DNA from: Euglena gracilis
Lineage: Eukaryota
Assembly: GCA_039621445.1 (NCBI GenBank)
Contig: CP154954.1
Span: forward strand, 31,334,012 to 31,398,011
Reading direction: 5' to 3'
DNA: 64,000 nt
The notes beneath the pieces were generated by a model. The model had not been told where the DNA came from. It ran no database searches and saw only the letters and a program-made list of their open reading frames with translations. Positions within the stretch are counted from its first letter, which is position 1, and every line of letters begins with the position of its first letter. The position numbers and the translations under genes were made by a program. Shown piece by piece: positions 25,128 to 48,089 of the stretch.

Positions 25128-27887
25128 CCGGATCTCCTCAATATTCTATTGGAGACCTTCCACCGCTGGGCGGCTGCCAGCGATATGGGCGTGCCGGTGG
25201 CGGGTATCCGACTGCCCTCCATCAGCTTCGCGGACGATGTGGCCTTGATTGCCGCCTCGGCCACAGAAATGACGGCCCTCATCCGAGCATGCCTCCAGCT
25301 GGGCGACCTGGACATTGTTTCCTCTTCAGGTTTTCGCTTTGTCGGTGTGGAGCTGGGCTTGCCAGAGCCCCAGGCCTCGGAGGTGCACTTCGCCCCTCGC
25401 CTGGGCAAGGCCTTGGAGACCCTGCGCCGGCTGCTGAAGGCTCCCCCTGCCGTCCTCCCTGTGCTCCCTCCATAGTGGGCATTTTTTTTAAAAAAAAACA
25501 AAACAACGTGTTTTTTTTAAAAAAAACCACTAAAAAAACATCAAAAAGCAAAAGGGAGATTTCATTCAGAAAACTCATTATGAAACTCCCAAACCATATT
25601 TTGAATCCTACTCAGTTCAAAAGTGCCAAAAATGGTCGAAAACATCCAAAAAAGCAAAAAAATGCAATTTTATGACTTTTTCCATTTTTTACAGGAGGTA
25701 GTTTTTGGTAAAACTGACCCAAAAGTTGCCAAAAATGACCGAAAATACACATTCAAAAAATTTTCTCTGCAAAACCTAGTGGGCGTGTTTTTTGTTTTTT
25801 TTTTTAAAAAAACATTGTTAGAAATAAAAAAACAAAAAAACAACGTCAAAAAAAACAGGCGTGCCCACTATGGCTCCCTCCTGTGGCGCGCCACTGTCCT
25901 CCCACAGGTGTGTACCAGATCCGGGATCTCAAGCCGATGGCCCCCCAGCGGCTCATGTCCGCCGGGGTGGCGGCCATGGGTCACAAGCCCCTGCGCTTGA
26001 ACACCTGGCGCTCCCCGCTGCGGCAGTGGGGGGCCCGTTGGGAGAATCTGCTGTGGCACACCCGGTCGCCCATGCGGTTTCTGCAATTGGTATGGCTCCA
26101 GACCCTGGGCAACACCTTTGCCATCTCAGGCTTCGTCCACCGGGCAATCGCCTGCCCGGGCCCAACCTGGGCAGGGTGGTGACTGAAATTTCCGGCCCCT
26201 GAAATTTCACGAAATTTCACGATTTTTTTCCTTTTCTTTCCGACCACTTTTCACGAATGTCATTATCCTAAACCTGGGCAGAAACATCCTCCGCTCTGCG
26301 CTCTGCCCTCGCAGTGGGATGGCGTGTGGTGCGCAACCAGGCTTGCGCTCGTCCGGTCTGCAGCCTGGCCGCGCCTCTGCCCCGAGCAGGCCTACCCAGG
26401 ACAGATTGTCCTCACGCCGGTTAATGACTTCCTCCCTCCGGGTGCCGTCTTCACAGATGACTCCTTAGCGTCCTCCGGGGGAGCCGCGGTCTGGGCCCCA
26501 GACACCGAGTCTGCCCTCACCTGTTCTGTTCCAGGTCCCTTGAGCTCCACCCTCTGCGAGTTGGTGGCCCTACGCACGGCGGCGGAGGCCTCCCCCCCGC
26601 ACATCTTGACAGACTTACTGACCTCCCTCCAAACGCTGGCAGGGGGGAATCTCTTCTCCCTTCCGTGTGTCCTCCAGTCTCCCCTCATGTCCCCACCGGG
26701 GGGGGGGGGGGAAAAATTTTTGCTCTAGAGAAAATTTGCCAGACAATTTTCGCGGAAGCAAATCCCGCGAAATATTTCCAGACATTTTTAAGGAATCCCG
26801 CGAAATTTTTGTCTGTGTATTTCCTTTCAGGTGCTCAAGGCTTCCCTTTTTTGCTTCACAGAAAAAAAATCCCGCAAAATATTTTCGGGCATTTTTAAGG
26901 AATCCCACGAAATTTGTCATCCGCGAAATTTGTCGCCGCAAAATTTCTCTGGCACGAAATCCCCCCCCCCCCGGTAGTGCGCCAGATCATCGCCGCAGCC
27001 AGGCTTGTGCTTAGTCGGGTGCCTACCCCACGGGAGGGGATGCTAAAGGCTAAAGGTGCCAAAGGCGCCGGGGGCCCGGAACAGGCTGTATTTTAGTCAG
27101 GTGCCGACCCCACCCCAGGGGGGGGGGGTGCCTGCCTGGGCAGGCACTTCAAGGCACTCCCGATCCGACCCCCCCGGGGGGGGGGGGTAGGGCACACGGC
27201 CCTACCTCAAGTGCCTAGCACAAGTGCCCTAGCACAGACCCGGCGCCAAAGGCGCGGGGAGCCAAAAATGGCCTATTTTCAAAGGAATGTGCCTGGGCAC
27301 AGGCCAAAATCCGACCCCCCCCCCAGTGCCTGCCTGGTCAGGCACTCAAAAGCACTCCGGACCCCCCCCTCCCCCCCGGGGTTGGTAAAAAAACAGCCTG
27401 GCCCGGAAAAGGCCTTTTTCAATGAGAATTTTCTGGGTCCCCCCGGCCCCCCCCCCCCGGGGGTGTCCCTTCTTGGGGCAGGCACCCCATAGCACCCACC
27501 CACCCCCCTCCCCCCCCCCCGGTCGGTAAGCACAAGCCTGGCCGCAGCCTCCTCCCTCTCAACGGCGCCACTCCTGGAGAAGGTGCGGGCGCATGACACG
27601 GCCGCCATTGAGACCGGTCATCCCAAGGCAGTGGGGAACGACTCCGCCGATTTCTGGGCCAAGGAGGCTGCCCTTGGCCGGGCCGCATCAACGTGGTCTC
27701 CTCCCCCCCCCCCATGCTTTGACGATCCCTTGCTCCTGCAAGACGCCTCAGGGTTGACGATCTACGACCTCCCCGCAGCGTTCGCCTGGGCCTGGTGGCT
27801 CAGGTGCCTGGTCTCCTGGGAGAAGCGCTCATCATTACGCCTCCTCATTTTGTTTCCCGGCATCCACCCCAATCGCCGTTTCCCGGC
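25128..27887 (+). pseudogene. RT/RNase H, copy C, with the same MITE insertions
   Basis: SFADDVAL, VFTDDS, CELVAL, KVRAH and GNDSAD motifs. Confidence 0.85.
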
Positions 27888-29630
27888 AGGGTTGTTCGAT
27901 TAATCGAAAGTCGATCAATCGGTCAAGACCCCCCCAATCATCGTTCGTTCGTCCGGTGATCGATTAATCGATTTTCAATGCCGCACATCCCGATTTTTCC
28001 GCACTCCACACCGTATTTTTTTGCACTTCCGGTCAATATTTTGCACTTTATCTCAAAAATGTTTGCACATGTTAAAAATTTGTTCACATTTTGTCTCAAA
28101 AATGTTTGGCATTTTATCTCAAAATATTTGCCTACGTTCCGAAATTTTTTGCACACGGATCGGGTGTTTTGCACTTTTGCCCTTAAAGTCCGCGTCTTAG
28201 GTGCAGGGACTCAGGACAGGGTGTGCGTCTACGCCGCCGGACTTCAGGCATGAGGCCTGTGTCTTAAAACGCAGTCTCCGTCCAAAATGCTGCGTCATGA
28301 ATAATGATTTTGTTGGAACCCCCCAAAACCGACCAAAATGGTTCAGAAAGCGGAAATGAATGGTTTGAAATGGAAATGTCATTGCTGCAAAAGCGCATTG
28401 ACCTCAGAATTTGTCCCACTTCATTCCAACCTTTGACAAATGAGTTACATTGGTTCGTTTCAAGCCGTTTTGAGCCGTTTTTCGAATACAAATCGTTGTA
28501 AATGGACAATACAACTCCAACGCCAACATGTGGTATAGAGAAAAATCAAAGACAGGAGTTCTTGGACATTTCCAAATACCAATTTCTGGTTTTGGAGTTT
28601 GCGCATTCATTCACGGTTGGGAAAAATCTTGACCATCACAAATGCACTGATCAAAGAAGCGCATTGAGTGTTTGTCGCGCTCAATGTTAGAAAGGAGAGA
28701 CATAGCGATGTGATGTAGTGTGATGATTTTTGGCAAAGAAAAGCACTGCATATGTGGGCAGCTTGCATCAAAACCCCAAATATTTTGCATTTTTGGCTGG
28801 TTTTCTGCCATTTCAGGTTTTTTTTTTGCAATAATTTTTAGCATTTTTGGAATTTTTGGGGTCAATTCATGGTCATCATCAGGGGCTTTTTTTAAAACAG
28901 GGGGGGGGAGGGGGGGTCCCCCCCCACCCCCCCACCCCCTGGGGGGGCCCCGCCGGGGGGGGGGGGGTCCCGGGGGACCCACAAAATCGCGAAAAGTGCT
29001 AAAAATAGCATTTTTTTGGCGCCTGCGGCGCTGAAAAGTATATCCCATTTTTTCCCCTATTGTCCATGTTGTCCACATTGTCCGTATGTCAAAAACAAAC
29101 TCGACATTGGTGTTCTTCAACACCGTTCTTCAACACCAACCAAACCACATGCTCACCGAATTTTGCCCACGTTCAACTAACCCATTTGTATAACCAACGA
29201 ACCCATTTCCGCACTTTTTTTACCACCCAAGGGACCTGCCTCAAGAAAAAACCCTTGGGTGATGAGTGGGTACTCATCCAATGATGATGAGGACACTAGG
29301 GTTTTCAGAGACCCCACATCGAATTCTACTCCCCTGGTCACAAGTGAGGGGCACCATGGCTGACATTGTCGGTTATGGTGAACAGAGAGTGACGCCTTGC
29401 TTGTGCATTTTTTTTTTAACCAAAAATGCCTTCATTTCAGCTGTTTTTGGTAATTTTGGTTTGATTTTGGGCTTATTGTTGGAAATTTTTCTCAGTCTTT
29501 TTTCCCTTAGGAATGTACAAACTCAGCGCATTTTTTGCGCATTTTTTTGCGCATTTTTGCGCATTTTTTCCGAGGGCCGTCCAGCGCATTCCCCCCCCCC
29601 CCTGTCCACTGGTCCACTGCAGGTGAGCAA

Positions 29631-29945
29631 CAGGGCGGTCCTTAGGGGACAGGAAAGTTTTTTTTTATATTTCCTTAAGGACCGCCCCCCTTTCGGCCAA
29701 AGGGCCAACCAAGGGCTGGACTAGGACTTGGAAAAGGCAAAAATTAAAAAGTCGAAAAACACAGTTTTTGATGATTTGGGTGGATGGATGATGGTCCAAG
29801 GGTGCCAGGAATCAATTTTTTTCCTGATGTCGACCTGTTCTCGCTGAAAAATGCCAAAATTTATTTGCCCATTTTCCGGTAAATTTTTCACTGAGTGTGC
29901 TGGGACAGCGGAGTTTTTTTTTTTATTTGCTTAAGGACCGCCCTG
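29631..29945. mobile_element. hAT-type MITE
   Basis: TIR CAGGGCGGTCCTTA/TAAGGACCGCCCTG. TSD GTGAGCAA. Confidence 0.92.
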
Positions 29946-29953
29946 GTGAGCAA

Positions 29954-31979
29954 TGCCGCCTTCCCTGCCTTTGCCGCCGGAGGACTGGGTGGCGTCCTTC
30001 CACAATCCCCTCGCAGCTGCACTGTTGCCGGAGTCCCACCTGCCTGCCCCTTGTCCCCATCGGATGCCCAGCGCTTCCTCGCTCGTTTGCATTGCCTGCT
30101 CGCAGAACGCCTGGCCAAGTGGATGAGTCGCCGCTGCGAGCTGATTGCCGCCGCCCCACAACGTGTCCCGGACGGTCTGGGCCTGGTACCCCAGGAATGG
30201 GTGCTGGGACAACGCCAGCCTTCGCACCTGCCACCGGAGCGCCGCCTCACGGTGACGGAGTTGTGACAGGCAGAGGGTGCCTGCCCGCCCGGTTTTGGCC
30301 CGAAACCGGGGGGGGGTATTATTTTGGCGGCTGAAGTCGGATCCCAATGGGGGGGGTATTATTTGGGGGGTTTACATACCTCTGGACACCTCCGTCGGCA
30401 ACACGGAAATATTCAGAGCCTAAAAAAGCAACAAAAGGGCCAAAATTCACCTGGCCCGTGTAGCACCATCTGGGGAGAGAGGGCCCCCCGACACACTGCA
30501 ACCTGTAACACATCACAGGGATTGTCACAAGCTCAGGGGCTTCCATTACACATTGCTGTTGGTAAATGTTGCGCCCGCACAACAGTTATCCATTGCGCGT
30601 ATGCGCAATGTAAAACTGTTGCGCATGTGCGCAATGTCTTTTTTCATGCGGTCTCCCCACCTCCTTTGCCATCATCCCAGGTCCCATCCAGGCTTGTGCT
30701 TAGTCGGGTGCCTACCCCACGGGGGGGGGGTGCCAGGGGCAGACACCCCATAGCACCCGATCCGACCCCCCCGGGGGGGGGTAGGGTTTTGGGGGGTGCC
30801 TGCCCCTAGCAGGCACCCCCCTCCGACCCCGGCGCCTTCGGCGCTGGGGCCTGGAAAAGGCCATTTTCAATGAAAATTTTCTGGGTCCCCCCCGGGTGTG
30901 CCTGCTAGGGCAGGCACCCTATAGCCCCCCCCCCCTCCCCCCCCCCGGTCGGTAAGCACAAGCATGGTCCCATCGTGTGGCCCCGTTCGCCTGAAGTGGC
31001 TGCGGGAGCGCCTGGTCCTTTTACAGGAGGAGACGGAGACCTGCCCATCAGCTGCTGGGTCTTCAGTAGAGGTCTTGCTGGCTCTCTTCGAACGCAGCAC
31101 CGGTGAGTCCTTCCAACCCCAGGGGTGAATGTGCAGCAACGTGACGGCTCCATTGGCTGCGTGTTGGGCCTCCTGTGTCTGCACCCCCCGCCCTCGTTGT
31201 CCCCTCTGCTGTCCCGAGTTCCCAAGGCAGGGGAGGTGCCTCCAGCCAACAGCTGGTACCAGCACTGCAGGCGCGCAAAAGCTGCAGCAAACGCCACCCT
31301 GGCCGCCTGGCTGCGGTGCCACCGGTTTCTGAAGCCGGTGGCACCCGAGGAGGGCGAGTCCGGGATGGCCCTTCTCCTCTTGTGGGAGGTTGACCATGGC
31401 TGCGCCTTCCCCAGCGACGCTGGGGATAGATCCTCTTCCTTGTTGGCAGGCTTTTCGCGGCGGCTGAAAACCACAGCAGAGCAAGACTCCGAGCTGCAGA
31501 CCTGGTTCGTCCCGAAAGACATGCAGTGCCCTCTCCACCCAGGTCTCCGACCTTCCCATCAGGTGCGTTGGCCTGTGAAAGTCATCACCTCCGGCGGTAT
31601 GTCGGAAACGTGGTTCAGCCATTTTTCGGGACGATGGAAAGCCTACTTTTTGTCCCTTGTGTGTCCAGCATCACAGGCCGCACCAGCGCTGCCGTCCGCC
31701 GGAGCTACATCGAGTTCAGATGCTCTTGCACAGGGGCAGCTGCCGGGGAGCCAGCCCTGAAACACAGGAGGACGGCTCCTCCCGTGCGCCCAGCCGAAAT
31801 GACAACGAGTTCAGCTGGGGCCACCTCGCCCGCGGCGCCGGCAATTCGGCGCCCCTTCATCCACCGTGTCGTCGCAGGCACCACCGCGGAAGAGGCGGGT
31901 CACTCTCGGGTCCTGGCTGCAACCACAGCGGCCACCTGAGGGAGCCCATGGCAGAGCTGCACAGGGGCCGCCCACCTAA
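29954..31979 (+). pseudogene. GC-rich coding-like remnant, possibly the 3' part of the same non-LTR element
   Basis: Long open frames (AQRFLARLHCLLAERLAKWMSRRCEL; LKWLRERL...WLRCHRFL...LLLLWEVDHG...WKAYF) with composition like the RT/RH segment and on the same strand. No domain recognised. Confidence 0.45.
30689..30966. mobile_element. hAT-type MITE (14761 family, no nested insert)
   Basis: TIR CAGGCTTGTGCTTA/TAAGCACAAGCATG. TSD GTCCCATC. Confidence 0.9.
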
Positions 31980-32361
31980 CGGGGACTGGGACGCGGGCAA
32001 TTCCCAGGTGACCCCTAGGGAGCCCAGCTGGCGCCCCAGGTGCGCAAGCACCGCCGACCGAACCCCCCCCCCCACTACACAGCCTGGGGGGTCGACCCCA
32101 GCGACCCTAGGGTCGTAGTGGGCCAACCTGGGGTCGGCCCACTGTCCCCCCTCCCCCCAGGCCAGATCCAGGAGCCCAGAGGGTCAGAGAATTCTTTCCA
32201 GCATTTTCGGCCAATTTTGGCTGGATTTTGGGTGGGTGGGTGAGTGGTTGACCCACGGTGATTGTGGGTGGGTGGGTGGGTTTTCAAAAAAAAAGTGGGT
32301 GGGTGGGTTTGGGCCTGGGAAGAATGCTCCCCCAGGTCACTAAGTGAATGTTTGTCCAGAC

Positions 32362-33066
32362 CAGGCTGTTTTTTTTTAGTCGGGTGCCGACCCCACCCCG
32401 GGGGGGGGGTGCCTGCCTGGGCAGGCATTCCAAGGCACTCCAAATCCGACTCCCCCCCGGGGGGGGCGGGGGCTAGGGCAAACTGCCAAAAGTGCCCTGG
32501 CACAACCCCGGCGCCAAAGGCGCCGGGGAGCCAAAAATGGCCTATTTTCAAAGGAATGTGCCTGGGCACTGGCCGAAATCCGACCCCCCGGGGGGGTAGT
32601 GCAGGGTTTGATATAAGGAGGGCGTACATGGTTTAGGTGGGGGGGGTGTCCCCCCCACCCCCCCCTCCTGGCCCGCAGGGGGGGGGGTCCGGACCACTCC
32701 CCCCCACCTGCCAGGGGGGTCCGGACCGACCCTCGGGGGGATTCCCGGGACCCCCCCCAAAAAGGGTCGATTTTTTCCTCCGGCGCTTTGCGCCGAAAAT
32801 TTTTTGCATTTTTGGCACATTTTTTTGCCCAAAAAGTGCCCAAAATGGCACTTTTGGTCGTTTTGGGGTGTCAAAATTTTTCGGTAACCCAGACCGCGCA
32901 CCTGTTTAGGTGTGGGGGCGGTGTCCCCACCACCACCCCCCTCCTGGCCCGCAGGGGGGGGGGTCCGGACCACCCCCCCACCTGTCCTTATATCGAACCC
33001 TGGGGTAGTGCCTGCCTGGGCAGGCACTCCGGACCCCCCCCCCCTGGGGTTGGTAAAAACAGCATG
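32362..33066. mobile_element. hAT-type MITE (14843 family) with nested MITE at 32602-33002
   Basis: Outer CAGGCTGTTTT/AAAACAGCATG, TSD GTCCAGAC/ATCCAGAC. Inner CAGGGTTTGATATA/TATATCGAACCCTG, TSD GGGTAGTG. Confidence 0.9.
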
Positions 33067-33108
33067 ATCCAGACCCCCGAGTCGTAAGAACACCACCATC
33101 AGAGGCGC

Positions 33109-33114
33109 ATGCCA
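33109..33114 (+). CDS. Putative start (ATG CCA) of the CCCH zinc-finger gene
   Basis: Followed by AAC-CAG at 33115. In frame with 33194 if 33115-33193 is an intron. An in-frame TAA lies upstream at 33085. Confidence 0.35.
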
Positions 33115-33193
33115 AACCAGGGAATTCCCCTTCCTTGGAACCAAAAACTGGGTACGAAGTCTAGAGAAAAAAGGATGTATTTCCTCTGACAGT

Positions 33194-33241
33194 CACCTGC
33201 CTGCCAATCACAGTGCAGTGGTGCAGCCACCAGAAGGGGCT
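33194..33241 (+). CDS. Putative exon HLPANHSAVVQPPEGA of the CCCH gene
   Basis: 48 nt bounded by CTG-ACAGT| and |GAC-CAG. Joins 33817 in frame. Confidence 0.5.
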
Positions 33242-33816
33242 GACCAGGCTTTTGCTGAAGGGATTGTAGTACCCCCCCCCCCCCCCCGGGGGGGGCTGGA
33301 CTGCAGATAGTCCAAATTTGGCTAGTGGGATTTCTAGCAGACCCCCCCGGGGGGGGGGTCTGCTAGCAGGGCTAGCCAGTGGAAAATTTTTTTCCAGTGA
33401 CCGGCGCGAAGCACTGAATTTTTGTTGGGACCCCCAAAAATGGCCAAAAATGCCTGCTTTTGGCCATTTGGGAATTTTTGGATCAAAATCAGCCAAAAAC
33501 CTATTAAAAACCTCATTTCCACCTCAGCGCACAGCGCCGGAGGAAATTTTTTTCCAGTTGGGGGGACCCCCCTTCCCCCCGGGGGAGGAGAGGGTCTAGC
33601 TGGTCCATTTTTTTCCAGTGTCTAGCCGATTGGCTAGCCAGGGAGTCCAACCAGCTTCTGAAAAGTTGGCGGAAAAAATTCCAATCCAGCTGGGTTGAGA
33701 TTGTTAAGCCAAAATTTTGCGGAGAAAATGCCATTTCCCCCTATTTTTGACCCTCTTTTTTTTCCAAGGAAAGAATCCTGGTTTCTTCTGGGTTGGGCGT
33801 ATCCAACCCTGAGACC

Positions 33817-33990
33817 AAGGCCAAGAGGAATGCAAAGGCCGCCAAGGTTTCGGGCACCCATCACGATGATCACTCAGTGGACCACAACAAGTACAAGACG
33901 CGCCTGTGTCGCAATTGGAAGGAGACTGGGAAGTGCCCTTACGGGGACACCTGTGTCTATGCCCATGGGGCTAAGGAAATGCGCTGCAGG
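33817..33990 (+). CDS. Exon encoding a C-x8-C-x5-C-x3-H zinc finger (TTP/ZC3H-like RNA-binding protein)
   Basis: [32 protein letters not shown] with no stops. 174 nt bounded by CTG-AGACC| and |GAG-CAG. Confidence 0.9.
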
Positions 33991-34667
33991 GAGCAGGCTT
34001 TTTTGAATGTGACCCCGCCACTGGCATTTTCAAAGTTTCCCCTCTTCTGGGAGGGGGTCGGTTTTTGGGATGGGGAGTGTCAAAGCACCATCAATGTTCA
34101 GGCCAGGCACCATCAATGTTCAGGTCAGGCAAACAAAGAGATATTCTTTTCTGCTGCAATTCTCGCCTTTGTTTCGTGTTTTCGGTTGGGGCTGGTTTTT
34201 TTTTGTAACAGAATTCCAACTGGCCAAATTTGGACAAGCTGCAGTTGAGCCCCCCCCCCCCTCCAGGGGGTGCTGAACCCTTAAGCAGAAGCCTGGACAA
34301 TGCTCAATCTCAAACAAATGGACACAGCAACGAAGGTGTCCATGTTTTTTTGTCCCGCTTCGCCCTTAGACAAAAAAACACCGGCCCCTAATTTTCGTTT
34401 TTCAAACTGGTAAAAACCCATGAAAGAGGTTTCTGAGATTTTTGCTTTCCCCTGCACGGACTCTCAGACCAGGAACTGCCAATCAGCCCCCTTTTCAATT
34501 TTGTGTGTGTGTTTTTTGTGATATTCGGGCTGCAAAGCATCGTCTCTGTGGATCGCCGAAAACGTGCCACCACCAAAAAAAACAGAGAAGGGGGGTTTTG
34601 CGCATCTCCCTGGGGGTGGTGCTTTGGGCAAGGACCACCTGGGGTCAGAGAAGAGAAGCCTGGCTGG
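33991..34667 (+). other. Non-canonical (non GT-AG) intron coinciding with a decayed hAT-type MITE
   Basis: CAGGCTT at +4 and AAGCCTG ending at -6. Flanking 8-mers GCAGGGAG/GCTGGGAG. Removal gives in-frame EMRCR|EDNEAAVMSL. Confidence 0.75.
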
Positions 34668-34765
34668 GAGGACAATGAAGCGGCTGTCATGTCGTTAACC
34701 AAGCTGGCCGACCACCTTTCTCGCCAGCGAACAGCAGCCCGGCTTCCTCCAGCAAAACAGATGCC
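34668..34765 (+). CDS. Exon EDNEAAVMSLTKLADHLSRQRTAARLPPAKQM of the CCCH gene
   Basis: In frame with the zinc-finger exon. 3' boundary inferred at CC|AGA-CAG. Confidence 0.7.
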
Positions 34766-35150
34766 AGACAGGCAACCTCAATGGGGGGCAAACTTGTAAT
34801 GTCGTTTCAAAAAGGGTCCGTCCTTGGCTTCTTTTTGTCCTCAGTTGATGGAAACTTTTATTTATTTATTCAATGAAAGATTCAATGAAAGAAAGAGCAC
34901 AGGACTTTCTGGACCTAAAAAAAATAACACAGATCGCCATTTGTTTTTTTTCTTTCAAAAGGGGCAAAAAATGGCCTAAAATTATTATTTTTGGCTGTTT
35001 GAGGTATTTTTGGATTTGACCTGGGTTTTTGACTCAAAAAAGTTCCAACCCAACTGGACTGGGCCAAAAGAAAATGCTTTTTCCAAAAAAAAATCCGAAA
35101 ATGTGAAGAAAAATCAATTCTGGCTGTAAGTTCCAACACCTTCTGTATGA

Positions 35151-35161
35151 GGTGCCCACCA
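35151..35161 (+). CDS. Putative 11-nt micro-exon
   Basis: Bounded by CTG-TATGA| and |AAT-CAG. Supplies the phase linking 34765 to 35873. Confidence 0.3.
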
Positions 35162-35325
35162 AATCAGGTATCAGAAGAGTGTGTCGCCTTTTGACACTGT
35201 TTAGAGTAGGAAACCCCTAGAGGAGGGTGTAAAAAGTGGGGTGTAGGGTGTAAGGGTGCAAGGAGGGTGTGAGGGGTTTCGGTGGAGGGGTGCCCTCCTC
35301 CTGGACCAGGTGAGAGGGCGGACAC

Positions 35326-35646
35326 CAGGCTTGTGCTTAGTCGGGTGCCTACCCCACGGGGGGGGGGGGGGGGGGGGGAGGGGGAGCCCCCCCCTAGCCC
35401 CCGATCCGCCCCCCCCCCCCCCGGGGGGGGGTAGGGTTTTGGGGGGTGCCTGCCCCTAGCAGGCACCCCCCTCCGACCCCGGCGCCGAAGGCGCCGGGGG
35501 CCCGGAAAAGGCCATTTTCAATGAAAATTTTCTGGGTCCGGCCCGGACCCCTATCCCCCCCCCCGGGGGGGGTGTGCCTGCTAGGGGCAGGCACCCTATA
35601 GCACCCACCCCCCCCTCCCCCCCCCCGGTTGGTAAGCACAAGCATG
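35326..35646. mobile_element. hAT-type MITE (14761 family) inside a predicted intron
   Basis: TIR CAGGCTTGTGCTTA/TAAGCACAAGCATG. TSD GCGGACAC. Confidence 0.92.
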
Positions 35647-35872
35647 GCGGACACCCCCTGTCTTGAAAAACCCCTGCCCGGGACCCACCCCAAAAGGTCT
35701 TTTCCTTCCGGTTTTTTCCCCCTTCTGGTGCTTTCCACCGAAAATTTTTCGCATTTTTGACAGTTTTTTTCCCCCAAAAGTCTCCAAAATAGCATTCTGC
35801 AGATTTTGGGAGGTGAATATTTTCGGTCACCTCATCGACCCCCCACCTGCCGTTGTATCGAACCCTGGTCCA

Positions 35873-35906
35873 CCCTGGCAGCCGGTGGGATCCTGCACCC
35901 CCCCCC
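35873..35906 (+). CDS. Putative short exon (T)LAAGGILHPP
   Basis: Follows AACCCTG-GTCCA|. The 3' boundary lies in a C14 run and is uncertain. Confidence 0.35.
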
Positions 35907-36020
35907 CCCCCGGGTTGCACCAGCACCTTTTTTCAACCCCTCAGCTCGCACAGAAAAAATGGCTTGAACTCAGCATTCCTTTTTTTTGGTGAGCCAACAG
36001 CAGATTTGCACCCTGTCGCA

Positions 36021-36083
36021 ACCACAGATGGGCATCTGGCCTAACTCGAGCCCTCTCTCCCACGCGGCGTATGCCCCTGCCGC
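36021..36083 (+). CDS. Putative exon PQMGIWPNSSPLSHAAYAPAA
   Basis: Bounded by CTG-TCGCA| and C|GCC-CAG. P/Q/A/S-rich peptide typical of RNA-binding protein tails. Confidence 0.5.
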
Positions 36084-36984
36084 GCCCAGGCAGACCCAAG
36101 TGCCAATGTTTGGGTTTGAAAGCCCTGGCTTGGCCCGAGGTATCTTCCGCCAGGGTGACTCCCGGAATTTCTTGGGAAAAAATCAACGCCATGATGAGGC
36201 CCTTTTGAGGAATTTTTTGACTCTTGGGTGCTTGGGCAGGGAATGAGTGGAGTGGAATGAGTGGAATGAATGAGTGGAGTGAGCGAAGCTGCGATTTTGG
36301 CTTTGGGTTTCGGTTCTCTCGGGTCACATTCAGTTGGTTCAAATGCAGGGGTGGGGAATTGATAACCACAATTTTCCCGCAATTTCTGCAGTTGTCCACC
36401 ATTTTTGAAGCTTTTCCACAATTTTTCCGCATGAACCTGAAACGGATGGCGAAGTGAGTTCCGGCCATGCCTTGAGCGTTTCATGAGGGAACCCTGGTGC
36501 ATTTTTTTGATATTTTGTTGCCAATTTGCCAAAGTTTGCCAATTTTTACAAATTATTTATAATTATTTCTGAAATCAGTGTGTTCCAGAAAGTACAAAAT
36601 CCTTTGTCTGGGTTTTTTGTTGGAAAAAGTGTCAATAACATCTCAAAGCAATCACCAATTTGACAAAAATAGCTGCAATTCCCACAATTTTCCCTCTGTT
36701 TTCCCCCACACATTTTTCCTCTTTCTTTTCCCGCAGTTTTCCTGCAATTTTTCTCAAGGCTTCCCTGGAAAATGAAGGGTAAAAAGGCTTCCCTGCAAAA
36801 TGGGTCACCACCATCCTTTTCAAGGTTGGATGCCCGTTGCGAGTCCTCCTCCTGCAATGAGGGTTATCTGGATGAGGGTCATCTGGTGTTCACCCCAAGG
36901 TGGCTTCCGCTTCCAGCTCTGATTATTTATGAAATCCTCACAACACGTTCGTTATCAAACGGAGTTCAAATTTGACAAGTTAAT

Positions 36985-37384
36985 CATTGTGGGCAGCCTG
37001 TTTTTATTGAGGTTGTTTTTTTGTTTGCTTTTTTAAAATTTGACAATATTAAAAAAACAAAAAAACGCCCATGAGGTTTTGCACAAAAAAATTTTATATG
37101 TTTATTTTCAATCATTTTGGCAACCTCTGGGTATTTTCTGCCAAAAACTCATTTCCACAAACATGAAAAACGTCATAAAATTGCATTTTTCTGCATTTTG
37201 ACCCATGTTTTGGCAGTTTTTGAACTTAGTAGGATTCAAAGTATCTTATCTTAAAGAGTATGGTTTGGGTGTTTCATAACGAGTTTTTTCAAAGAAATTT
37301 CCCTTTTGTCTTTTTAATGGTTTTTTTTGGTGTTTTTTCTTCTTCAAGAAACACATTGTTTTTTTTAAAAAAATGCCCACTATG
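36985..37384 (-). mobile_element. Older inverted copy of the 13247 MITE
   Basis: CATTGTGGGCA/TGCCCACTATG ends. Degenerate TSD AAGTTAAT/AAGTCAAC. Internal TTTTTGAACTTAGTAGGATTCAAAGTA shared in reverse complement. Confidence 0.8.
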
Positions 37385-40010
37385 AAGTCAACAGGTCGAG
37401 AGGATTGGGGGGACTGCTACCTGAGAATTGGCAATCCAGAGATGTGTTTCCCTTGGGGGTTGGTATGTGGGATGCCGTCAGGTGATATCCTGAGCGGAGG
37501 TCAGCACACCAGTCCTTTTGATGTACATTGGAATCCCCATTTCACATTTCATCCTTTTGCTGCAAATGATGGAGGTGGATTGAGCGTCTGCGAAGCGGTG
37601 TAATGTTGGGTTTCTTTTTTTTTTGAACAAGGCATCTTCTCATTTTGGTGGTTTTTTATTCTGTGAGGTTTTGGTTCAGGTCCTCCCCCAGCGATCCCCC
37701 CAGCACTTTTTTTTAATTTGGTTTTCGTCGAAACAGATGGAACTCATTTTGGTCCGACCCTTTTTTAAAGAAATTGGTTCAAATGCATAATATCAAATGG
37801 ATGAGGTGTGTGAGATTTTTTTTAAGGACCCGGGGGGGGGGTCGGCACCAAACCAGCCCCTGGGGTGGGACAGGGGATTTGGGGGTCAATTTTGTCCCAA
37901 AAATGTTAGTTCTTCGCACTGAAAAAAAAGAGGGACCCCCATCCATCGTGGGGTGGGCTGAGCTGGGACCCCTCCCGCCGTGAAAAATAATTTAATAAAA
38001 AATAATAATAATGATTCCTTGAGATCCACCCAATGGATGACGCAATGCGTTCTGATAATTCGTCAAATGGGTCTCAAGGCAGGGGAGGGCACAAGCGCCT
38101 TTTCTGCATTTGTGTATTTTTTGATTTTTGGCGGAATTTGCCAGGGGCTGTACAGAACTGTGTGTGGGGGGGGGTCAGGGCGGTCCTTTGAAACCGGAAG
38201 GGTCAGGAAAGTTTTTTTTCGTTTTCTTAAGGACTGCCCCCCCCCTTTCTGCCGACCAAGGGCTGGACTGGGACTTGAACGGGGTCAAAAACTCAAAAGC
38301 CGAAATGCACATTTTTTGATGATTTGGGTGGATGGGCGATAGTCCAAGGATGCCAGGGATTATTTTTTTCCTGGTGTCGACCTCTTCTTGCCGGAAAATA
38401 CCAATTTTTCTTGCCCACTTCCCTGGTTTTTTTTCCATTGACTGTGCTGGAACAGCGGAGTTTTTTTTTTAAATTTTGTAAAGGACCGCTGTGGGGTGGG
38501 GTCCCCCCCCCAGGGATGGATGGGAAGCCCTTCGGTATTGAGGTAGGTGGTAGGGGGGGGGTCCCCACCACCCCCCTGGGGGGATAAGGTGGTAGGGGGG
38601 GGCGGACCACCCCTCCTTAACAGGTGCCAAAAATAGCAGAAAATTTTCTTCCGGCGCACAGCGCCGGAAAATGAGCAAAACCCCCCCTTTTGCTGACTTT
38701 TGGACATATTGCCCACTTTTTGACGTGTTGGTGTTCCCCCCCCCCAAAAAAATGTTCAAAAAATTTCAAAAATGAGCATTTTTGGATTGATTTTCAAAGA
38801 AAAATCAGGGATTTTTGACCGATTTCAAACAGATTTCCGGCCCTTTGCCCGTCCATGAAATCGAAAAATTTTCGGCCCTCCCTCAGTTTCGAGTAGGAGG
38901 GGGGGGGGTCCGACCCTCAAGGCTTCCCATCCATCCCTGGCCCCCCACCAGGCCTTTCCATTTTTCTGGGGGGTGCCGATTTCTACGCCAAACTTTTCCC
39001 TCAGCTCCCCTATGATTTTTTTTGTTCCCAAGGGGACCCTTCGTGCCAAGTTTGCCCCTCCCCCCCAGTTCTGCTGGGAATTTTTTTTCAACTTGGAAAA
39101 AATTGGCACTTTGAGCCTGAGGTGATTTTTTCCTCTTCAGTGGAAATGTGTTCTCAGTATGAGCTTTTCTGCAGTCATCCATAATTTTCTTGAAGGTTCC
39201 AATGTCATCCCACCCAACTCACCACAGCCCCCATACCTCCTTCCTTTGCCCGCTAACCACCCATGAACAACGACCACCCCCCAGTTGGGGGATACAGTTT
39301 CGGGGGTACATACGACCACCCTGGCCGGGGTTGTAGGTGGCTTTGAAAACTGGGTTGTTTTTTTGTTTTTGTACTCAGCCGTCCGACCACCCCCTGGTCG
39401 GGGGTGGTGGGTTGGGTGGCGTGTATGACCCCCCCCCCCCGGTCAGGGGTCATAGGAACCCGGTCGGTGGGCAAAGGGGGGGGGTACATGAGCCCTGGGT
39501 GTTCACATGTCAGTGTGCCATTTTGAAGAGTCGGACAAAGGGTGCTCCCGCATTTTTTAAAGTATTTTGCGCCTTCTGTTGTAGAGCGGCACCCGTTGGG
39601 TCCTTTTTACAGCGTTCCCGCCGAACGCTGACCACTCCCCTCTCTGCCGTCTGTAATGAGCCCAACATTCAGTTTTCTCAAACCCAGGGCTGTTATCTTC
39701 CCTCACAGTTTAGCCTCATATTCCTTTTTAACGATCATGTGGAAACTTGGCCTCCTTCAAAGTTGGTTCCTCACCTAGAGGCCAGATATATTTATGGCTG
39801 TTGATGCCCCAAGGCTGCATAATTCTTTTGAAGAATTGCAGACAAGGCTTGCTGTTGAAAACCTTCAATATGCCACAGAAGCAACAATATTGCATATCAA
39901 TTTATCATTTCAAAAAATTACCATATCAATGAAGGGTTGCATCAAATTCTCGAAATTTGATGTGCAACAGTTTTCTTTCAACAATCCACCCATTCCTTAA
40001 GGGTTCCCCG

Positions 40011-40303
40011 CAGGCTTCTTTTTAATTCACCTGCCCCCCCCCCCCCCCGGGGGGAGGGGGGGTGGGGGTGTGTTCCCGGCCGGTCACCCCCCCCCCGGGG
40101 GGGGGGGGGGGGGTCCCGCGCCGGAGGCGCTGGGTATACCTTTTCGGCGCGAAGTGCCGAAAATTTTTGAAAATTGCCTTTAACGGGCCCGATTTTGGGG
40201 GGGTCCCCGGACCCCCCCCCCTTGGGGGGGGTCCCGCCCCACCCTGGGTGGGTGGGGGGGACCCCCCCCCGCCCCCCCCCCGGGGGACTTAAAAAGAAGC
40301 CTG
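40011..40303. mobile_element. hAT-type MITE
   Basis: TIR CAGGCTTCTTTTTAA/TTAAAAAGAAGCCTG. TSD GTTCCCCG/GTTCACAG (6/8). Confidence 0.85.
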
Positions 40304-40663
40304 GTTCACAGTAGGCCAAATTTGGCGAGCGAAATCCCAATGACCTCCCTGGAGGGGGTCCGCTAGCAATTTTTACAGTGACCGGCGCGAAGTGCCGCAA
40401 TTTTTTGGAGGACTCCCAAAACCTGCCAAACAGGCCCATTTTTGGCCATTTTTGGGATTTTTGCAAAATCAGCCAAAAAAATGTATTAAAAACTTCATTT
40501 CTTTCCTGGAGAAAAAATTTTTCCTGGGGGGGGGTGGCTGGTCTAGCTCCTTTTTTCCAGTGTCTAGTGAAATGGCTAACCAGTGACCCTCCTGGGGACC
40601 TTAAGCAATAGCCTGGCAACAATGCATAGACCAAGAATGTGTTATTTTCAATGTATACAGATA

Positions 40664-41052
40664 CAGGGGCATTTCGCATTTTTTCGCAGTTTTTGCGCAT
40701 TTTTTCAAATTTTCCAAAATGCGCATTTTTTTCGCATTTTTTGCGCATTCTTTCATTTTTTTTCAGCGCATTTTTTTGCTTTTTGGCACATTTTTTCGTG
40801 ATTTTCCAAAATTTTCGCATTTTTTGACCATTTTTGCAATTTTTTTTGCAAAAATTTGAAATTTTCGACTTTTTTTAAAACTTACATTTTCCTCATTATT
40901 CTACATAATTTCTTCAAATTTGGTGCCATTTTTGCATGGTTTTGGGTAATTTTTGCATTTTCGTGATTTTTGCGCATTTTTTTTGCGCATTTTTTTGCGC
41001 ATTTTTGCGCATTTTTTCCGAGGCCGGGCGAGCGCATTCCCCCCCCCCCCTG
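40664..41052. mobile_element. TIR element rich in GCGCATTTTTT repeats (partial copy at 29523-29604)
   Basis: CAGGGG...CCCCTG ends flanked by CAGATA on both sides. The 3' ~80 bp is shared with 29525-29604. Confidence 0.65.
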
Positions 41053-41199
41053 CAGATATGTGCACAGATATTCATGCATAATATGAAATTCCAGGTGACA
41101 AAAGTTGTGATCCGAACAGGGACCAGGACGTTTGTTAGATTGGGGGGGAGCAGGTGTGGACGTGCGTACCTATTGCACACATACCTCCCTCCCTCCCAT

Positions 41200-41490
41200 T
41201 GGAAACTGTCATGCCTGAGAACCTGTCAGGGTCCTGCTCGTGAAACTGTCAGGGTCCCCGTCACCGGCCAACCTGTCAGTTTAGGAAGTTGTCAGGGTCC
41301 CTGGTGCTGACCAACCTGTCAGGGTCTTTTTTTTTTCCATTGATTTTCCCTTAAAATGCCCTCCCCAGGAAACTGTCAAGGCCCCCCTCCTTGGAAACTG
41401 TCAGGGTCTTGGGTGCTGGCCAACCTGTCATGATAGGAAGCTGTCAGGGTCCTCAGCACTGGCCGACCTGTCAGGTGACAGTTTCCCAGG
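41200..41490. repeat. Dispersed tandem ACCTGTCAGGGTC motif repeats
   Basis: About 10 copies of (A/C)CTGTCAG. Confidence 0.7.
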
Positions 41491-42499
41491 CAGAGGGGAC
41501 ACATGTACATTGATGAAATTTGACAATCCAATTTGACAATCACCCAGATGAATTGTCAAAAGTGAAATTTCCATTCCAGGTGGCGTGGCAGCATCCGCTT
41601 CCTGTATTCAAACTCATATTGCTTTGTATACCCTCTTGCTGCCTAAAATTCTGTTTTCTCTGGGCATCCCACAAAATTGATTTCTTTCGCCGAGTTCACA
41701 CCCCACTTTGATGACCTTTGGACAAATGAACATTGTGGACCCCCCAAATGATCCCCCCTGAAAGACTGCCACAATGGGACGTGGTTCAGTAAGCAAACTG
41801 TGGGGCGGTGTTGCAGTTCCAATCCACATGACCCATGAAAAGTTCAAAAGGGCATTGCCAAGGGTGGATGCCCCTCCATTTTGAAAGAAAGGTCAAGAGG
41901 GACTTCCCTTACATGTGGCCATTAAGGTAGGCACCATGTTCTGAGACAGGGGCAAGGGCAGGGGATGTCAAGGCGGCCAATAAGGGACGGGAAGGTTGGT
42001 TTTTATTTTCAAAGTCCACCCCAAAGGGATCTTCAGGCCCCAGGGACGGCCAACGGCCGATCCAGGGATCGAACGGGGTCAAAAATTAAGAAGTCGAAAA
42101 GTGCAGTTTTATATTTTGGGTGGATGGACGATGTGTGAAGATGCAAGGAATAGCCTTTTCCCCCGAAATCGACACATTTTTTTTGCCAAAATATGATTAT
42201 TTTCCAAACCATTTTGTTTTTTTCATTGAATGTGTTGAGACAGGATTTTTTTTTTTTTTTTTAAGGAGCGCCATGGGGAATTTACAGAAATCCCAAAACC
42301 CTGAGGGTGGGGGTGGGGGGGGTTTACAGCCCTCACAGGAGGTGAAATTTGAGAGCTGCTAGTGAGAAATAATTGAAAATTGTCGCCCTAAATTTTTGGT
42401 TTTCCCAAGCATTCAGTTATCACTGTCAACCATTGCCCCCCCCCCCACATTCTCTTACACACCCTTGCACACCCTCAAATTGTCCTGTGTTCTTTTCCA

Positions 42500-45110
42500 T
42501 TGTGCCTGATCCATTCTAACAGAAGTTTGGACCGCCATTCATCTGTACAGCACCGTTCCACCCACCCCCATCACCCCCTTGGCAAGCCTTCTGTGGCTGC
42601 TTTGAGACCAGCACCTCCACCCAGACAAGTCAGAACCCCCCCCTTAGATCTGCTGTCAAGCACCTGTCCAGGAGGCATCCCCTGCTGGGGGTGTCCTTGG
42701 ATTTCTGCCTGGTCAGGGGAAAGGGGGGGCAGCTTTGCTTCATCAAACGGACAGTTTGCATTGCATCCCTGGGGGTGGCACATTGCCGAAGTGCCTGAGC
42801 ATTTCTGGCAAGCCCCATGTTCCAACTTGGGGGGGGTGATCAAATACCAGAAATGATTGTGATTTTTGAAGGCCTAATGGCACTCTCTTTCACCCTGGCA
42901 GGGATTGAAAATTCCAATACCTTCACACGGGTGTAGACTGTCCACTGGGATCCCAGTGAACGTTCAACAGAGTTTGGATTCCCAGGGGAAGATTATGGGT
43001 CCATCTGGCTGCCAAGGCTTGTGCCATTGCGCAATGGCGGTGCTGTCAGGGACATTGGCAGGCACGCTTTTGGCTGAACTGGAAATATTGGAGTGTGCTG
43101 CCTGTGCTCCTGTAGTGTAGTCCCAGCAGGGGCAGGAGGGCAGTTGGCAGATATTTCTCTTTTTTCTAACATCATTTGTTCATTTCTTGTGGCGGCTATA
43201 TACATATTCAGGCAAAGTAATATCGAATTGTCACTTGAGCTTAAGGAAATTTTGGGCCTCAACACTTCATTTCTTTAGAAAAAAGTATAAATTCAACAAA
43301 AAAAAAACTCTAAAAAACAAGCTAGTTGGGGTCAACCAGCGGCCGTAGTGGTTGATCCAGAACTTGGTTTTTGGGGGGGAAATGTCTGATGCCACAATGC
43401 CCATTTATCGGCCCATAATTCAAAAATCTTCTTCCTCAGGCGGAAAACTGCTCAAAGTGCAACAATTCTTGAAGTCAAAATCACACGTTTGCATGGATCG
43501 GGATGTCAATTCTTCCGCAATGACTCCAGGGTCAATTCAGGGGCCGGAAGTGTTTTGGTTCTGGCTGCCCTCTGCCCCTGGCCGTTCTCGCTTTTGGGCA
43601 GTCGTCCCCTGTCTATTTCATACCGCTCTGTAGCTCCCACTTGTCCCCCAGCCGGTGCACATCCTGGGAAGTCAACAGTCAAGTTCAGGTCGGTCAGGTT
43701 CTAGGGGGGAGACCGGGGGGGGGGTCCAAAAGTCAACCAGATCCGGATTACTCACCTCCTGGGGTTTTGGCCTCACGCTCGAATCTGCAGTAACCATCAT
43801 ATGCTTGTTCTGGACCTTGGCATCAACTTTGTTTGTTTTTTTTTTGCTATTTCCGCAAATTTCCGAAAATTATTCTGCAAAATGTCGCAATTTCGCAACA
43901 GTGATTGTTTAAAGTCTCCATCCATATCCTTCCTGATCTGTGTACATTTGCTTAAAAAATTCTGATCAAAAATGCTACATTCCACATCATGGATGCATTT
44001 CTCTGATGTAAAGAAGTCAATAAATCCACCATTGGGCACCATTGGGCATTGCATGCATTGTTTGGCACCGGTTGCCTCTTGTTGACTTAACCCCCAATTA
44101 GAAGCCCCCCGGATTTCACTCTGCGGAAAACCCGAGTGGGGTGCGCCACGGGTCAGGTTTTTGCCGGCCAAAGGCCAGGCCGGAAAATTTTTTTCCAGCA
44201 TTTTCGGTCGACGTTGGCTGGGTTTTGGGTGGCTGGGTGGGTGGGTGGTGTTGACCCCCCCCCCGGAGTTGTGGGTGGGTGGTTTTTTTTTTGGTGGTTT
44301 TGGTTTTCAAAAAGTGGGTGGGTGGGTTTGGGTCCCATCCAAGGGGGGGTCACCAAGTGTCTCTATGGTCCCAACCACTCCTCCTGACCCTTGGTCTGGA
44401 CAGAGTCCTTGACATAGCAAAACGTGGTTTGCCCAGTTGTTGTGCCCTTGCCTGGTTTCCATGGGAATGTGCATGGTTGCTGGAACCCAATGTGCATTGC
44501 CTTGGCAATGATGCAGGAAGTTCCCATTTGGGTGGTTTGGTTTGATTTGACGAACCAGCAGGTTGCAAGGTTAGGGTCAGTGTTTGCCCCCAATGGGATT
44601 GGGGCACTGGCTGGTGTCTTTCAACCCTGCAGCACGGTTGCCTCACACTCCTCCAGGCTTGCGTTGTAGAAAGGAATGGTTGCTGATTCTCTTTTACCCA
44701 CTGAAAAAAAATGGGCATTCCATCCTCTGGTAATGAGCAGACATGTTTTTGCCATGGGATGAAGTCTTTTGTAATCCAATGCCACTGCACTTATTTTTCC
44801 CCCTTTTGTGATCCGCAAAAAAAATTATCTGTGACTCGGTAAACGTTTGTCATGTGCTCCGGAGCGGTTTCATTTGCAGCCCAGCCCTCAGGAACAATTT
44901 GCTGATTTTGCCCTTTTGAAACAGACTCAAAAATTGCTCAAGAAGGTAAAGAAACTGGGCTCCAATTGTGGATTTCAGTTCTTTTTGGCATTTGCAAATA
45001 GTGTTCAACAACAAGTCTATTCTTTTTTTTGCAGCGGTTCACCAAACTTTGTCGGCATCGTTGGCAAATGGAACTCGTGAGGGAACAAGCGGAAGAGGAA
45101 CTCCTGAGGG
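42500..45110 (-). pseudogene. Possible highly decayed non-LTR retrotransposon remnant
   Basis: VPFANDAD...IDLLLNTI (FADD-like) near 45000-45075, PMVPNGG near 44030, and a Cys-containing segment near 43140. Many stops and insertions. Confidence 0.3.
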
Positions 45111-45139
45111 GGAAACTGCCGCAAATGGTGGAAGGGGCA

Positions 45140-45244
45140 ATACACACACACACACACATACACACATATATGTACATGCATATGGATTGTATGTATGCAT
45201 GTATATGTATGTATGTACACACACATATATATATTATGTGTGTT
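45140..45244. repeat. (CA)n/(TA)n/(TG)n purine-pyrimidine microsatellite
   Basis: Alternating RY tract that begins with CA repeats and ends with TG repeats. Confidence 0.9.
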
Positions 45245-45256
45245 TTTGGCAAGTGT

Positions 45257-45447
45257 ACCCTTTGATACCCCCTTTGACCTGGAGGGGATTTTTGGGTTAT
45301 TGAAAGAACAGGGTTGGGGTCAGCCTTGGGCTCTTAGACCTAATTTATAGATTAGTGTTAGGCCTGCGCATGAGTCTAAACTTAGGCCCAACCCTCATCC
45401 TATTCCTTCAAAAACCCAAAAATCTGCTCTGGGGGGTACCAAAGGGA
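45257..45447. mobile_element. Short foldback element
   Basis: CCCTTTGATACCCCC/GGGGGTACCAAAGGG, with inner arms TTTTTGGGTT/AACCCAAAAA. Confidence 0.6.
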
Positions 45448-47301: not shown

Positions 47302-48089
47302 CAGGGAATTTCTTAAGCCGGAGGGTGCCCTACCCCCCCCCCCCCCCCCCCGGGGGGTCCATCCAGCCAGCAGCTCAAATCCAGCCAGCAGCCCAAATTC
47401 GGGCTGGGAGCCCCCACCCCCCCCCAGGGGTCGAGTGAAATAAAGTCGGGTCCAGCCCGGCCGGAGGCCGGGCCAGCCGGCCGCAGGCTGGACAGCCAAC
47501 TGGGCTGCCCAGCTCACCTATCCATGCATTTTTCCCCCCTCATCACAGCTTCCTCCATCACAGCCCCCAGCCTTGATCTAGCTCCATCCATCAAAATGTC
47601 TAAAATGGCAAAAATGTTTTAGAAAATTTTGTTTTTCATCGACCCAGCCCAGCCCAGCCTCCTCCAGCCCCCGACCCCCCCCCCCCGGGAGGGTCCAGCC
47701 AGCTGCTCATTCAGGGGTTTTTTTAGTCGTGGACCCCCGGGGGGGGGGGGGGGGGTGGGGGGGGTGGGCCCGGCCGGGCCCCCCCCCCCCCCGGGGAGTC
47801 CCCTCGGAGGGGGGTGGGATATACTTTTTGGCGCTGAAGGCGCCGAAAATTTTGGAAAAGTGCTATTTTCAGCAATTTTCGCAATTTTTCGGCCATTTTT
47901 TGTGGGTCCCAGGACCCCCCCCCCCGGGGGGGCCCCTGGGGGGACCCCCAGGAGGGGGGTGGGCGGGTGGGGGGGGACCCCCCTCCCCCCCCGGTCTTAA
48001 AAAAACCCCTGTGCTCATTTCCAGCCAGCAGCCTTTTTGCCAGCCGGAGGCTGGACCCCCCTCCCCTGGGGGTCCTTAAGAATTCCCTG
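47302..48089. mobile_element. hAT-type MITE with nested MITE at 47712-48011
   Basis: Outer CAGGGAATT/AATTCCCTG, TSD GTCACGAT. Inner CAGGGGTTTTT/AAAAACCCCTG, TSD TGCTCATT. Confidence 0.92.

Follow-up and report, generated by a model that had tools for sequence, protein, structure and literature searches.

Where do the nonconventional introns of euglenids come from? Both their origin and the mechanism of their removal have been open since the 1990s. We address the question at one locus of Euglena gracilis, a stretch of 64,000 nucleotides from contig CP154954.1 (assembly GCA_039621445.1, positions 31,334,012 to 31,398,011 of the forward strand), which we call the window and to whose numbering all positions refer. 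Within it, a small gene encoding a CCCH zinc-finger protein is interrupted by an intron of 677 nt, here named J1 (33991-34667, plus strand). An initial annotation of the window, made from the sequence, had taken J1 for a hAT-type MITE (a miniature transposable element with inverted repeats) converted into an intron. We find that J1 is a genuine nonconventional (non-spliceosomal-type) intron and that true CAGG...CCTG MITEs with 8-bp target-site duplications (TSDs) are present in the window. Comparing the two at the sequence level, we put the probability that J1 began as a non-autonomous DNA transposon inserted in an exon at roughly 55%.

Nonconventional introns carry CAG at positions +4 to +6 and CTG at positions -8 to -6 (PMC11282704, PMC12501133). 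MITE-like insertions were proposed as their source by Milanowski et al. 2014 (PMC3935182), at a time when, according to that paper, no transposable elements had been identified in euglenids. A 2024 review terms the CAG/CTG ends terminal inverted repeats (TIRs) and mentions "TSD-like sequences" (PMC11282704). A 2025 knock-in study found that splicing depends on CAG and CTG, on spacers of 3 nt at the donor and 5 nt at the acceptor side, and on a purine following the intron; it still calls the origin of these introns unclear (PMC12501133). A MITE origin has been in print since 2013, and the two spacers were shown experimentally in 2025.

J1 is a nonconventional intron of a zinc-finger gene

Four public runs were compared over positions 28500-48499. 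X1 and X3 are contig sets from different studies, judged to derive from RNA by their spliced contigs. X21 is a raw RNA-seq run, of which about 5% was read; it is unstranded, with mate directions about equal, and the strand of the gene was taken from its protein. X20 is a DNA run that contains 0.90 of the words of the stretch in 984 million letters of contigs. The joints considered below are the best-supported 15 of 2076, and rare isoforms are possible.

The best supported of these joints, 33988->34666, skips 677 nt and has a positional ambiguity of 5 nt, a range that includes a cut at 33990|33991. It is carried by 125 + 91 X21 reads (216) with 100 start places, by a single contig in X1 and by another in X3; the DNA run X20 has it in 0 contigs. 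Excision of 33991-34667 joins EMRCR|EDNEAAV in frame, and the transcript-derived protein P0003 (EG_transcript_18911, 270 aa) carries exactly this junction (...EMRCREDNEAAV...), a match that, by the label its source gives it, marks the window as E. gracilis nuclear DNA. The exon to the left (33817-33990, plus strand) encodes a single CCCH zinc finger (Pfam zf-CCCH, E=4.2e-13), is 100% identical to P0003 over 58 aa and is present as a contig piece at 33817-33988. The coding exon to the right (34668-34778, plus strand; EDNEAAV...DRQPQ) is matched by a contig piece at 34666-34778 and, at 100% identity, by P0003 in a tblastn search. Two orthologues, P0004 and P0005, align across the J1 site without a gap. 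A metagenome scan for orthologous DNA of that site returned only unrelated multi-CCCH genes, at 3 loci.

J1 can be placed in six equivalent registers, from 33989-34665 to 33994-34670, and at none of them does either strand offer GT-AG or GC-AG ends. In the register 33991-34667, CAG occupies +4 to +6 and CTG -8 to -6, giving spacers of 3 and 5 nt, and the first exon base 3' of the intron (34668) is G, a purine; in the register 33989-34665 the minus strand likewise fits the CAG/CTG rule. The terminal CAGGCTT (33994-34000) is complementary to AAGCCTG (34656-34662). These ends belong to a left arm at 33994-34016, in which the perfect CAGGCTT is followed by a T-rich stretch and TGACCCC, and a right arm at 34641-34662 (GGGGTCA...AAGCCTG), both on the plus strand. 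Folding predicts a terminal stem of 33995-34004 with 34652-34661, with core pair probabilities of 0.97-1.0, and a further pairing of 34010-34016 with the right arm, so that the paired arms reach about 22 nt (CAGGCTT...TGACCCC). At stem positions where the DNA arms differ, the predicted fold contains U-G wobbles, and the fold of the whole intron has z=-2.4 against 20 shuffles. The element-like core is adjoined by GCAGGGAG on the left (33986-33993, 5 nt exonic and 3 nt intronic) and GCTGGGAG on the right (34663-34670, 5 nt intronic and 3 nt exonic), which are identical at 7/8 positions.

Because of the RNA joint, P0003, the non-GT-AG ends and the positions of CAG and CTG, we conclude that 33991-34667 is a true nonconventional intron. 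J1 shows every testable feature described for this class (PMC3935182, PMC4770533, PMC12501133): non-GT-AG ends, the CAG/CTG pair, a stem, 3- and 5-nt spacers, the purine and a slidable direct repeat. The initial annotation had drawn the pairing of the ends, the near-repeated flanks and the cut, 3 nt ahead of CAG and 5 nt beyond CTG, as they appear here; it had proposed an RNA check across 33817-34765, and the junction it predicted there is the one that reads, contigs and P0003 contain, with no GT-AG option. Its premise of a host with nonconventional introns also holds, J1 being one.

Could an intron-less paralogue or retrocopy have supplied the joined RNA, with no splicing at this locus? Three residues of P0003 are not those of the window, hence more than one allele or copy exists. 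The DNA run contains 0 contigs with any of the gene's 14 RNA joints, and the sole joint in its contigs, 40719->40996, is an indel in a T-rich repeat. We give such a source almost no credence. Two further proteins, P0001 and P0002, are open reading frames (ORFs) derived from Logan that run from the end of the preceding intron through exon 33817-33990 into J1. Their part from exon 33817-33990 is 100% identical and their intron-derived parts have diverged, so there is at least one more allele, copy or strain in which the locus bears the intron.

CAGG-ended MITEs in the window

Are there transposons in the window that could have supplied such an intron? We scanned for pairs of ends with a 7/7 TIR starting from CAG, 60-2000 bp apart and with flanks identical at 7/8 positions or better. 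The window contains 12, the reversed sequence 0, and 20 shuffled sequences 1 in total. Duplication length was equally restricted: perfect flank repeats accompany a 7/7 TIR in 11 cases at 8 bp and in 0 cases at 5, 6, 7 and 9-12 bp, so that among the lengths 5-12 tested the TSD is exclusively 8 bp. With a relaxed TIR (at least 10/14), 15 elements have perfect 8-bp flanks, against 0-2 in 11 displaced-register controls, and the same relaxed scan of the reversed sequence yields 0 elements with an 8-bp flank repeat. Twelve of the 15 are independent insertions, and 3 are copies within a larger duplication. The CAG start is required for this contrast, because a generic scan for TIR and TSD without it gives G/C homopolymer matches that are equally frequent in the controls.

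The elements fall into blastn families with multiple copies, 13-15-bp perfect terminal repeats and sizes of 240-790 bp, and the family ends read CAGGGGTTTTTTTA, CAGGGCGGTCCTTA, CAGGCTTGTGCTTA, CAGGGTTyGATATA and CAGGGAATTTCTTA. Some are nested one in another. Thus TIRs, a TSD of fixed length, multiple copies and nesting are all present among the 15 elements, and the window contains true CAGG...CCTG MITEs with 8-bp TSDs, as the initial annotation had claimed of its perfect-TSD, CAG..CTG-ended repeats.

A MITE with the seven terminal bases of J1 lies at 14761-15304; it has CAGGCTT...AAGCCTG ends, a 14/14 TIR and the TSD GCCGCAGC, contains a nested MITE at 14843-15162, and is duplicated at 27000-27540. 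A MITE at 29631-29945 (14/14 TIR, CAGGGCGGTCCTTA; perfect TSD GTGAGCAA) has relatives at 38176-38489, 41969-42275 and 19140-19375. The element at 47302-48089 (TSD GTCACGAT) encloses another at 47712-48011 (TSD TGCTCATT), which belongs to the CAGGGGTTTTTTTA family along with 16663-16943, 24474-24749 and 52128-52425. Two MITEs lie inside introns adjacent to the exons described above: 32602-33002, with CAGGGTTyGATATA ends and the perfect TSD GGGTAGTG, in the preceding intron, and 35326-35646, of the CAGGCTTGTGCTTA family with the perfect 8-bp TSD GCGGACAC and a right end CATG, in the following one.

Several other features of these repeats were observed. The CAGGCTTGTGCTTA-family MITEs at 30689-30966 and 35326-35646 both have perfect 8-bp TSDs and end in CATG in place of CCTG; nature thus offers in them a counterpart to the CTG mutants with which the published assay saw nonconventional splicing abolished. 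The element pairs 14761/27000, 14843/27082 and 16663/24474 have common TSDs, and identity within the pairs is 92-98%. The flank GCTCCCTC recurs at three elements that end in CATAGTG, at 13247, 17661 and 25471.

Which superfamily made these elements? Transposons of the hAT superfamily have the end consensus YARNG, the target pattern nTnnnnAn, 8-bp TSDs, short TIRs and CAG starts. The window MITEs are like hAT MITEs in their 8-bp TSDs, short TIRs and CAG ends. The CAGGG ends fit the consensus, whereas the CAGGC ends fit it at 4/5 positions and deviate at position 5. By hand count, 3/12 independent TSDs (GTCATCAT, GTGAGCAA and GTCACGAT) fit the target pattern, with about 0.75 expected. The label hAT in the initial annotation is compatible with the 8-bp TSD and the CAG starts, and draws on nothing beyond the length of the TSD and the bases at the ends; the CAGG MITEs are probably, though not certainly, hAT-like. 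The alternative that these MITEs and the ancestor of J1 are Merlin, P-like or Mutator-like elements seems unlikely to us. In its favour, a Pfam scan of 19 of the 103 window ORFs of at least 140 aa detected RVT_1 and zf-CCCH as the only domains and no hAT transposase. Merlin is also the only DNA transposon superfamily that we found documented in E. gracilis, where two families are described, both with 8-bp TSDs and with TIRs that have a conserved terminal 5'-GG-3' (PMC8101967). This terminus argues against Merlin, since the window MITEs start with CAGG and their flanking repeat abuts the C.

The origin of J1 and the 3 + 5 rule

Did J1 begin as one of these elements? Beyond what is known of nonconventional introns, J1 has flanks that repeat almost intact over 8 bp in the register of the transposons, and matching MITEs at its own locus. 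The competing account, which we regard as somewhat doubtful, is that J1 is an ordinary nonconventional intron of non-transposon or unspecified origin: its stem would be demanded by the splicing code, and its 7/8 flanks would reflect chance together with the short direct repeats that are common at such introns through repair-mediated gain or junction sliding. Direct repeats are indeed reported at 84.4% of E. agilis introns (PMC12501133). The J1 repeat, however, has the same register and the same length (8) as the repeats of all 15 window MITEs, and at a fixed register a match of at least 7/8 occurs in 0.16% of random position pairs in the window. It also reaches beyond the 5-nt run at the junction (GC.GGGAG). 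The seven terminal bases of J1 are, moreover, those of a resident MITE family, that of 14761-15304. Scored against a profile of MITE ends, the two ends of J1 rank in the top 6% and 10% of 841 CAGG sites, a weak score because ends of other MITEs are part of the background and there are few families.

A number of observations weigh against a transposon origin. To judge from the sequence, J1 resembles the window MITEs only by its ends, and a 7-bp CAGG stem is needed by any nonconventional intron, so the TIR alone is no proof of a transposon. The TIR is 7/7, and by eye about 16/23 over the extended DNA arms. The interior of J1 has no blastn match to the window MITEs, except for a nested repeat piece of 48 nt (34210-34257, an inverted copy of 33288-33335 at 85%). 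The ends of J1 lie in DNA contigs with a depth of about 50, which corresponds to a single copy, whereas MITE-rich bins reach 10^5; within the 64-kb window and by DNA depth, J1 therefore lacks the multiple copies expected of a MITE, although old or low-copy relatives may exist elsewhere in the genome. Of the seven matching flank bases, five stand side by side at the junction, like the microhomology seen at other joints of the gene: at least 3 nt at 5/15 RNA joints, against 6.5% expected (p=0.002). J1 was picked by eye from a 64-kb window, and it is the only one of the gene's 18 introns with a clear 8-bp flank repeat (the 3 protein-inferred introns were inspected); the chance of one match of at least 7/8 in 18 tries is about 3%. 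Two other introns of the gene, with good stems, also depart from element+8. J9 (43123-43581) has, by eye, a 16-17-nt CAGGGG TIR like that of a window MITE family, and yet this single-copy intron lacks a flank repeat and its cut falls at element+5, not +8; J3, examined by hand, is cut at element+3.

How far does the 3 + 5 rule hold in the rest of the gene? None of the 18 introns has GT-AG ends on the coding strand. The full CAG/CTG motif is present in 3/18 (J0, J1 and J8, the last at 42606-43050), against 0.07% of random intervals, and half of the motif in 5 further introns. At the MITE register the flanks match at 3/8 positions in J0, 7/8 in J1 and 5/8 in J8, the values for J0 and J8 having been counted by hand. 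Also worked out by hand, the cut of intron 12325-12453, 129 nt long, falls at 2+6. GC-AG ends on the minus strand of J6 and J7 were considered and judged to be chance, no pyrimidine tract being seen. The gene thus shows a weakly conserved code and one near-intact duplication. The gradient that had been proposed, from perfect-TSD MITEs through a 7/8 intron to introns keeping only CAG/CTG, is not demonstrated: a single intron supports it, and the other two with the full motif stand at 5/8 and 3/8.

The opposite direction of descent, in which the CAGG...CCTG repeats would be introns that had turned mobile, for example via circular RNA, also deserves mention. Excised nonconventional introns have been reported as circles (cited in PMC11282704 and PMC12501133), and the same ends are common to repeats and introns. 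Against it, the strict 8-bp duplication, 13-15-bp perfect TIRs, nesting and 240-790-bp size are marks of cut-and-paste DNA transposition, and with an excised RNA would come 3+5 additional bases, which are not part of the element in its genomic copies. We consider this direction very improbable.

If J1 did begin as a transposon, the course of events might have been as follows. A CAGG...CCTG element of the sort that still abounds near J1, with 13-15-bp TIRs and an obligatory 8-bp duplication, would have inserted in the exon at the target GCAGGGAG. On landing there it would already have fitted the published code. Because that code reaches 3+5 = 8 nt past the CAG/CTG stem, splicing would take out the insertion, in either orientation, and with it just one of the two duplication copies. 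Since only one copy is lost, the original mRNA would be restored whichever way the element points, and the insertion would be harmless from the start. Afterwards the interior and the arms would have drifted, with pairing kept partly by wobble pairs, and one of the eight intronic duplicated bases would have changed.

The initial annotation had pointed out that an element plus 3 nt and 5 nt of flank contains exactly one 8-bp TSD, so that its removal leaves no scar. The arithmetic is sound, because J1 is cut at 3/5 and the resident elements make 8-bp duplications at that register, and it is consistent with the knock-in data (PMC12501133). A MITE origin of euglenid nonconventional introns in general is partly supported by J1, as a single case. 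More tentatively, the nonconventional code as a whole may be a device for precise excision at the RNA level, matched to one class of DNA transposon in both orientations. If so, every exonic insertion of a CAGG MITE would be silent at birth, which would account for the share of nonconventional introns in Euglena, about 70%. In that case J1 is a young-to-middle-aged example and the MITE families of the window are its still-recognisable source. Euglena would neutralise transposon insertions at the RNA level, in parallel to the precise excision that ciliates perform at the DNA level.

How does this differ from what has been proposed before? The published MITE-like hypothesis contains the same idea, that inverted-repeat transposons inserted in exons become introns (PMC3935182, PMC11282704). 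The passages that set it out give no TSD length, superfamily, link between 3+5 and 8, or actual MITE families. The MITE-origin reading of J1 is a sharper, testable form of that hypothesis, with one good case and matching MITE families in the locus, and it turns the idea quantitative: the splice offsets of 3+5 should equal the 8-bp target duplication of the resident transposons. Our literature search, from which subscription journals, figures and supplements were mostly excluded, found no paper tying hAT or an 8-bp duplication to 3+5, and no report of CAGG-ended MITE families in Euglena. The sliding-distance chart of PMC12501133 (Fig. 1B and SI) may hold relevant data.

Introners, described in Micromonas, dinoflagellates and Fritillaria (PMC11282704), are like J1 in that a transposon and its duplication are removed and the mRNA restored. 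Unlike J1, they are spliceosomal, take their splice sites from element plus TSD, and form large near-identical families; J1 follows a stem-measured nonconventional code and is single-copy. We found no introner-type family of near-identical introns in this gene, where J1, J8 and J9 are single-copy (DNA depth bins 57-95).

Further predictions follow from a transposon origin. Genome-wide, the 8-mers at -5 to +3 of the two splice sites should match above chance, MITE families should count certain introns among their full members, and transcribed perfect-TSD MITEs should be removed at a-3/b+5. The window MITEs would be ready-made natural substrates for the published knock-in assay.

The remainder of the gene and neighbouring features

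What gene does J1 interrupt? A tblastn search of the window with P0003 places the start codon at 4198, and upstream coding exons at 4198-4278, 10605-10730, 12250-12324 and 12454-12564 (plus strand) are predicted from the protein only. The intron that follows, J0 (12565-33816, plus strand), is about 21 kb long and separates the last of these from the zinc-finger exon. It is supported by 229 X21 reads that break off from the local sequence at 33817, whose upstream sequence lies outside 28500-33816 and was located at 12541-12564, and by P0003, which reads ...DPSIES|KAKRN... across the junction. J0 follows the rule of CAG at +4 to +6 and CTG at -8 to -6 and has, by hand count, a 10/14 terminal inverted repeat and flanks without a repeat. 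Aligned by eye, its terminal repeat resembles the ends of the 32602-type MITEs. J0 is full of nested MITEs and contains one duplicated block.

Downstream of J1, the joint 34778->36019 removes 1240 nt as a single nonconventional intron, J2 (34779-36018, plus strand; a shift of up to +3 is possible). The joint is carried by 89+66 X21 reads (155) and by X1 and X3 contigs, with 0 occurrences in the DNA, and P0003 reads ...DRQPQ|PQMGIW... across it. The exon 36019-36147 (plus strand), supported by RNA joints and tblastn of P0003, is the last fully coding one; translation stops within the exon after it, 36855-36894, and the protein ends ...GIFQ.

This structure replaces most of the earlier gene model. 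The initial annotation had drawn six introns, of which J1 was right and the other five (33115-33193, 33242-33816, 34766-35150, 35162-35872 and 35907-36020), although they keep the frame open, are contradicted as drawn by the RNA joints and P0003. Among these five, 33816 and 36020 are the only 3' ends that agree with real ones. P0003 contains neither of the micro-exons (35151-35161 and 35873-35906), nor the exon 33194-41, nor a start at the codon at 33109. Three introns within 34779-36018 were rejected, since among the joints considered RNA shows one of 1240 nt, and 35872 was rejected as a splice site, not being among those joints. Five nucleotides before 35872, at 35867, a degenerate MITE copy of the 32602 type nested in J2 reaches its right end (...ATCGAACCCTG).

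The RNA continues beyond the stop codon through at least 10 more short exons (31-287 nt) in 36148-47092, separated by non-GT-AG introns and with read support similar to that of the coding part. The exon 45521-45807 has stops in all six frames, and no second gene was found downstream of the stop. From the sequence, this part of the transcript looks like a long multi-intron 3' untranslated region or a non-coding tail. One of its introns has alternative joints, 43641->44619 and 43642->44623 (42 and 90 X21 reads), which differ by 1 and 4 nt at their two ends. The difference 40719-40996 is the presence or absence of 276 nt in a T-rich TTTTGCGCATTTT-type repeat, observed in 5 X20 DNA contigs and one X1 contig; it is variation in repeat copies, not splicing. 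Farther downstream, pieces of reverse transcriptase (RVT_1, best E=5.8e-15) lie in three frames on the A-rich plus strand at 54677-59537, a region that by its sequence is recognisable as a degenerate retroelement.

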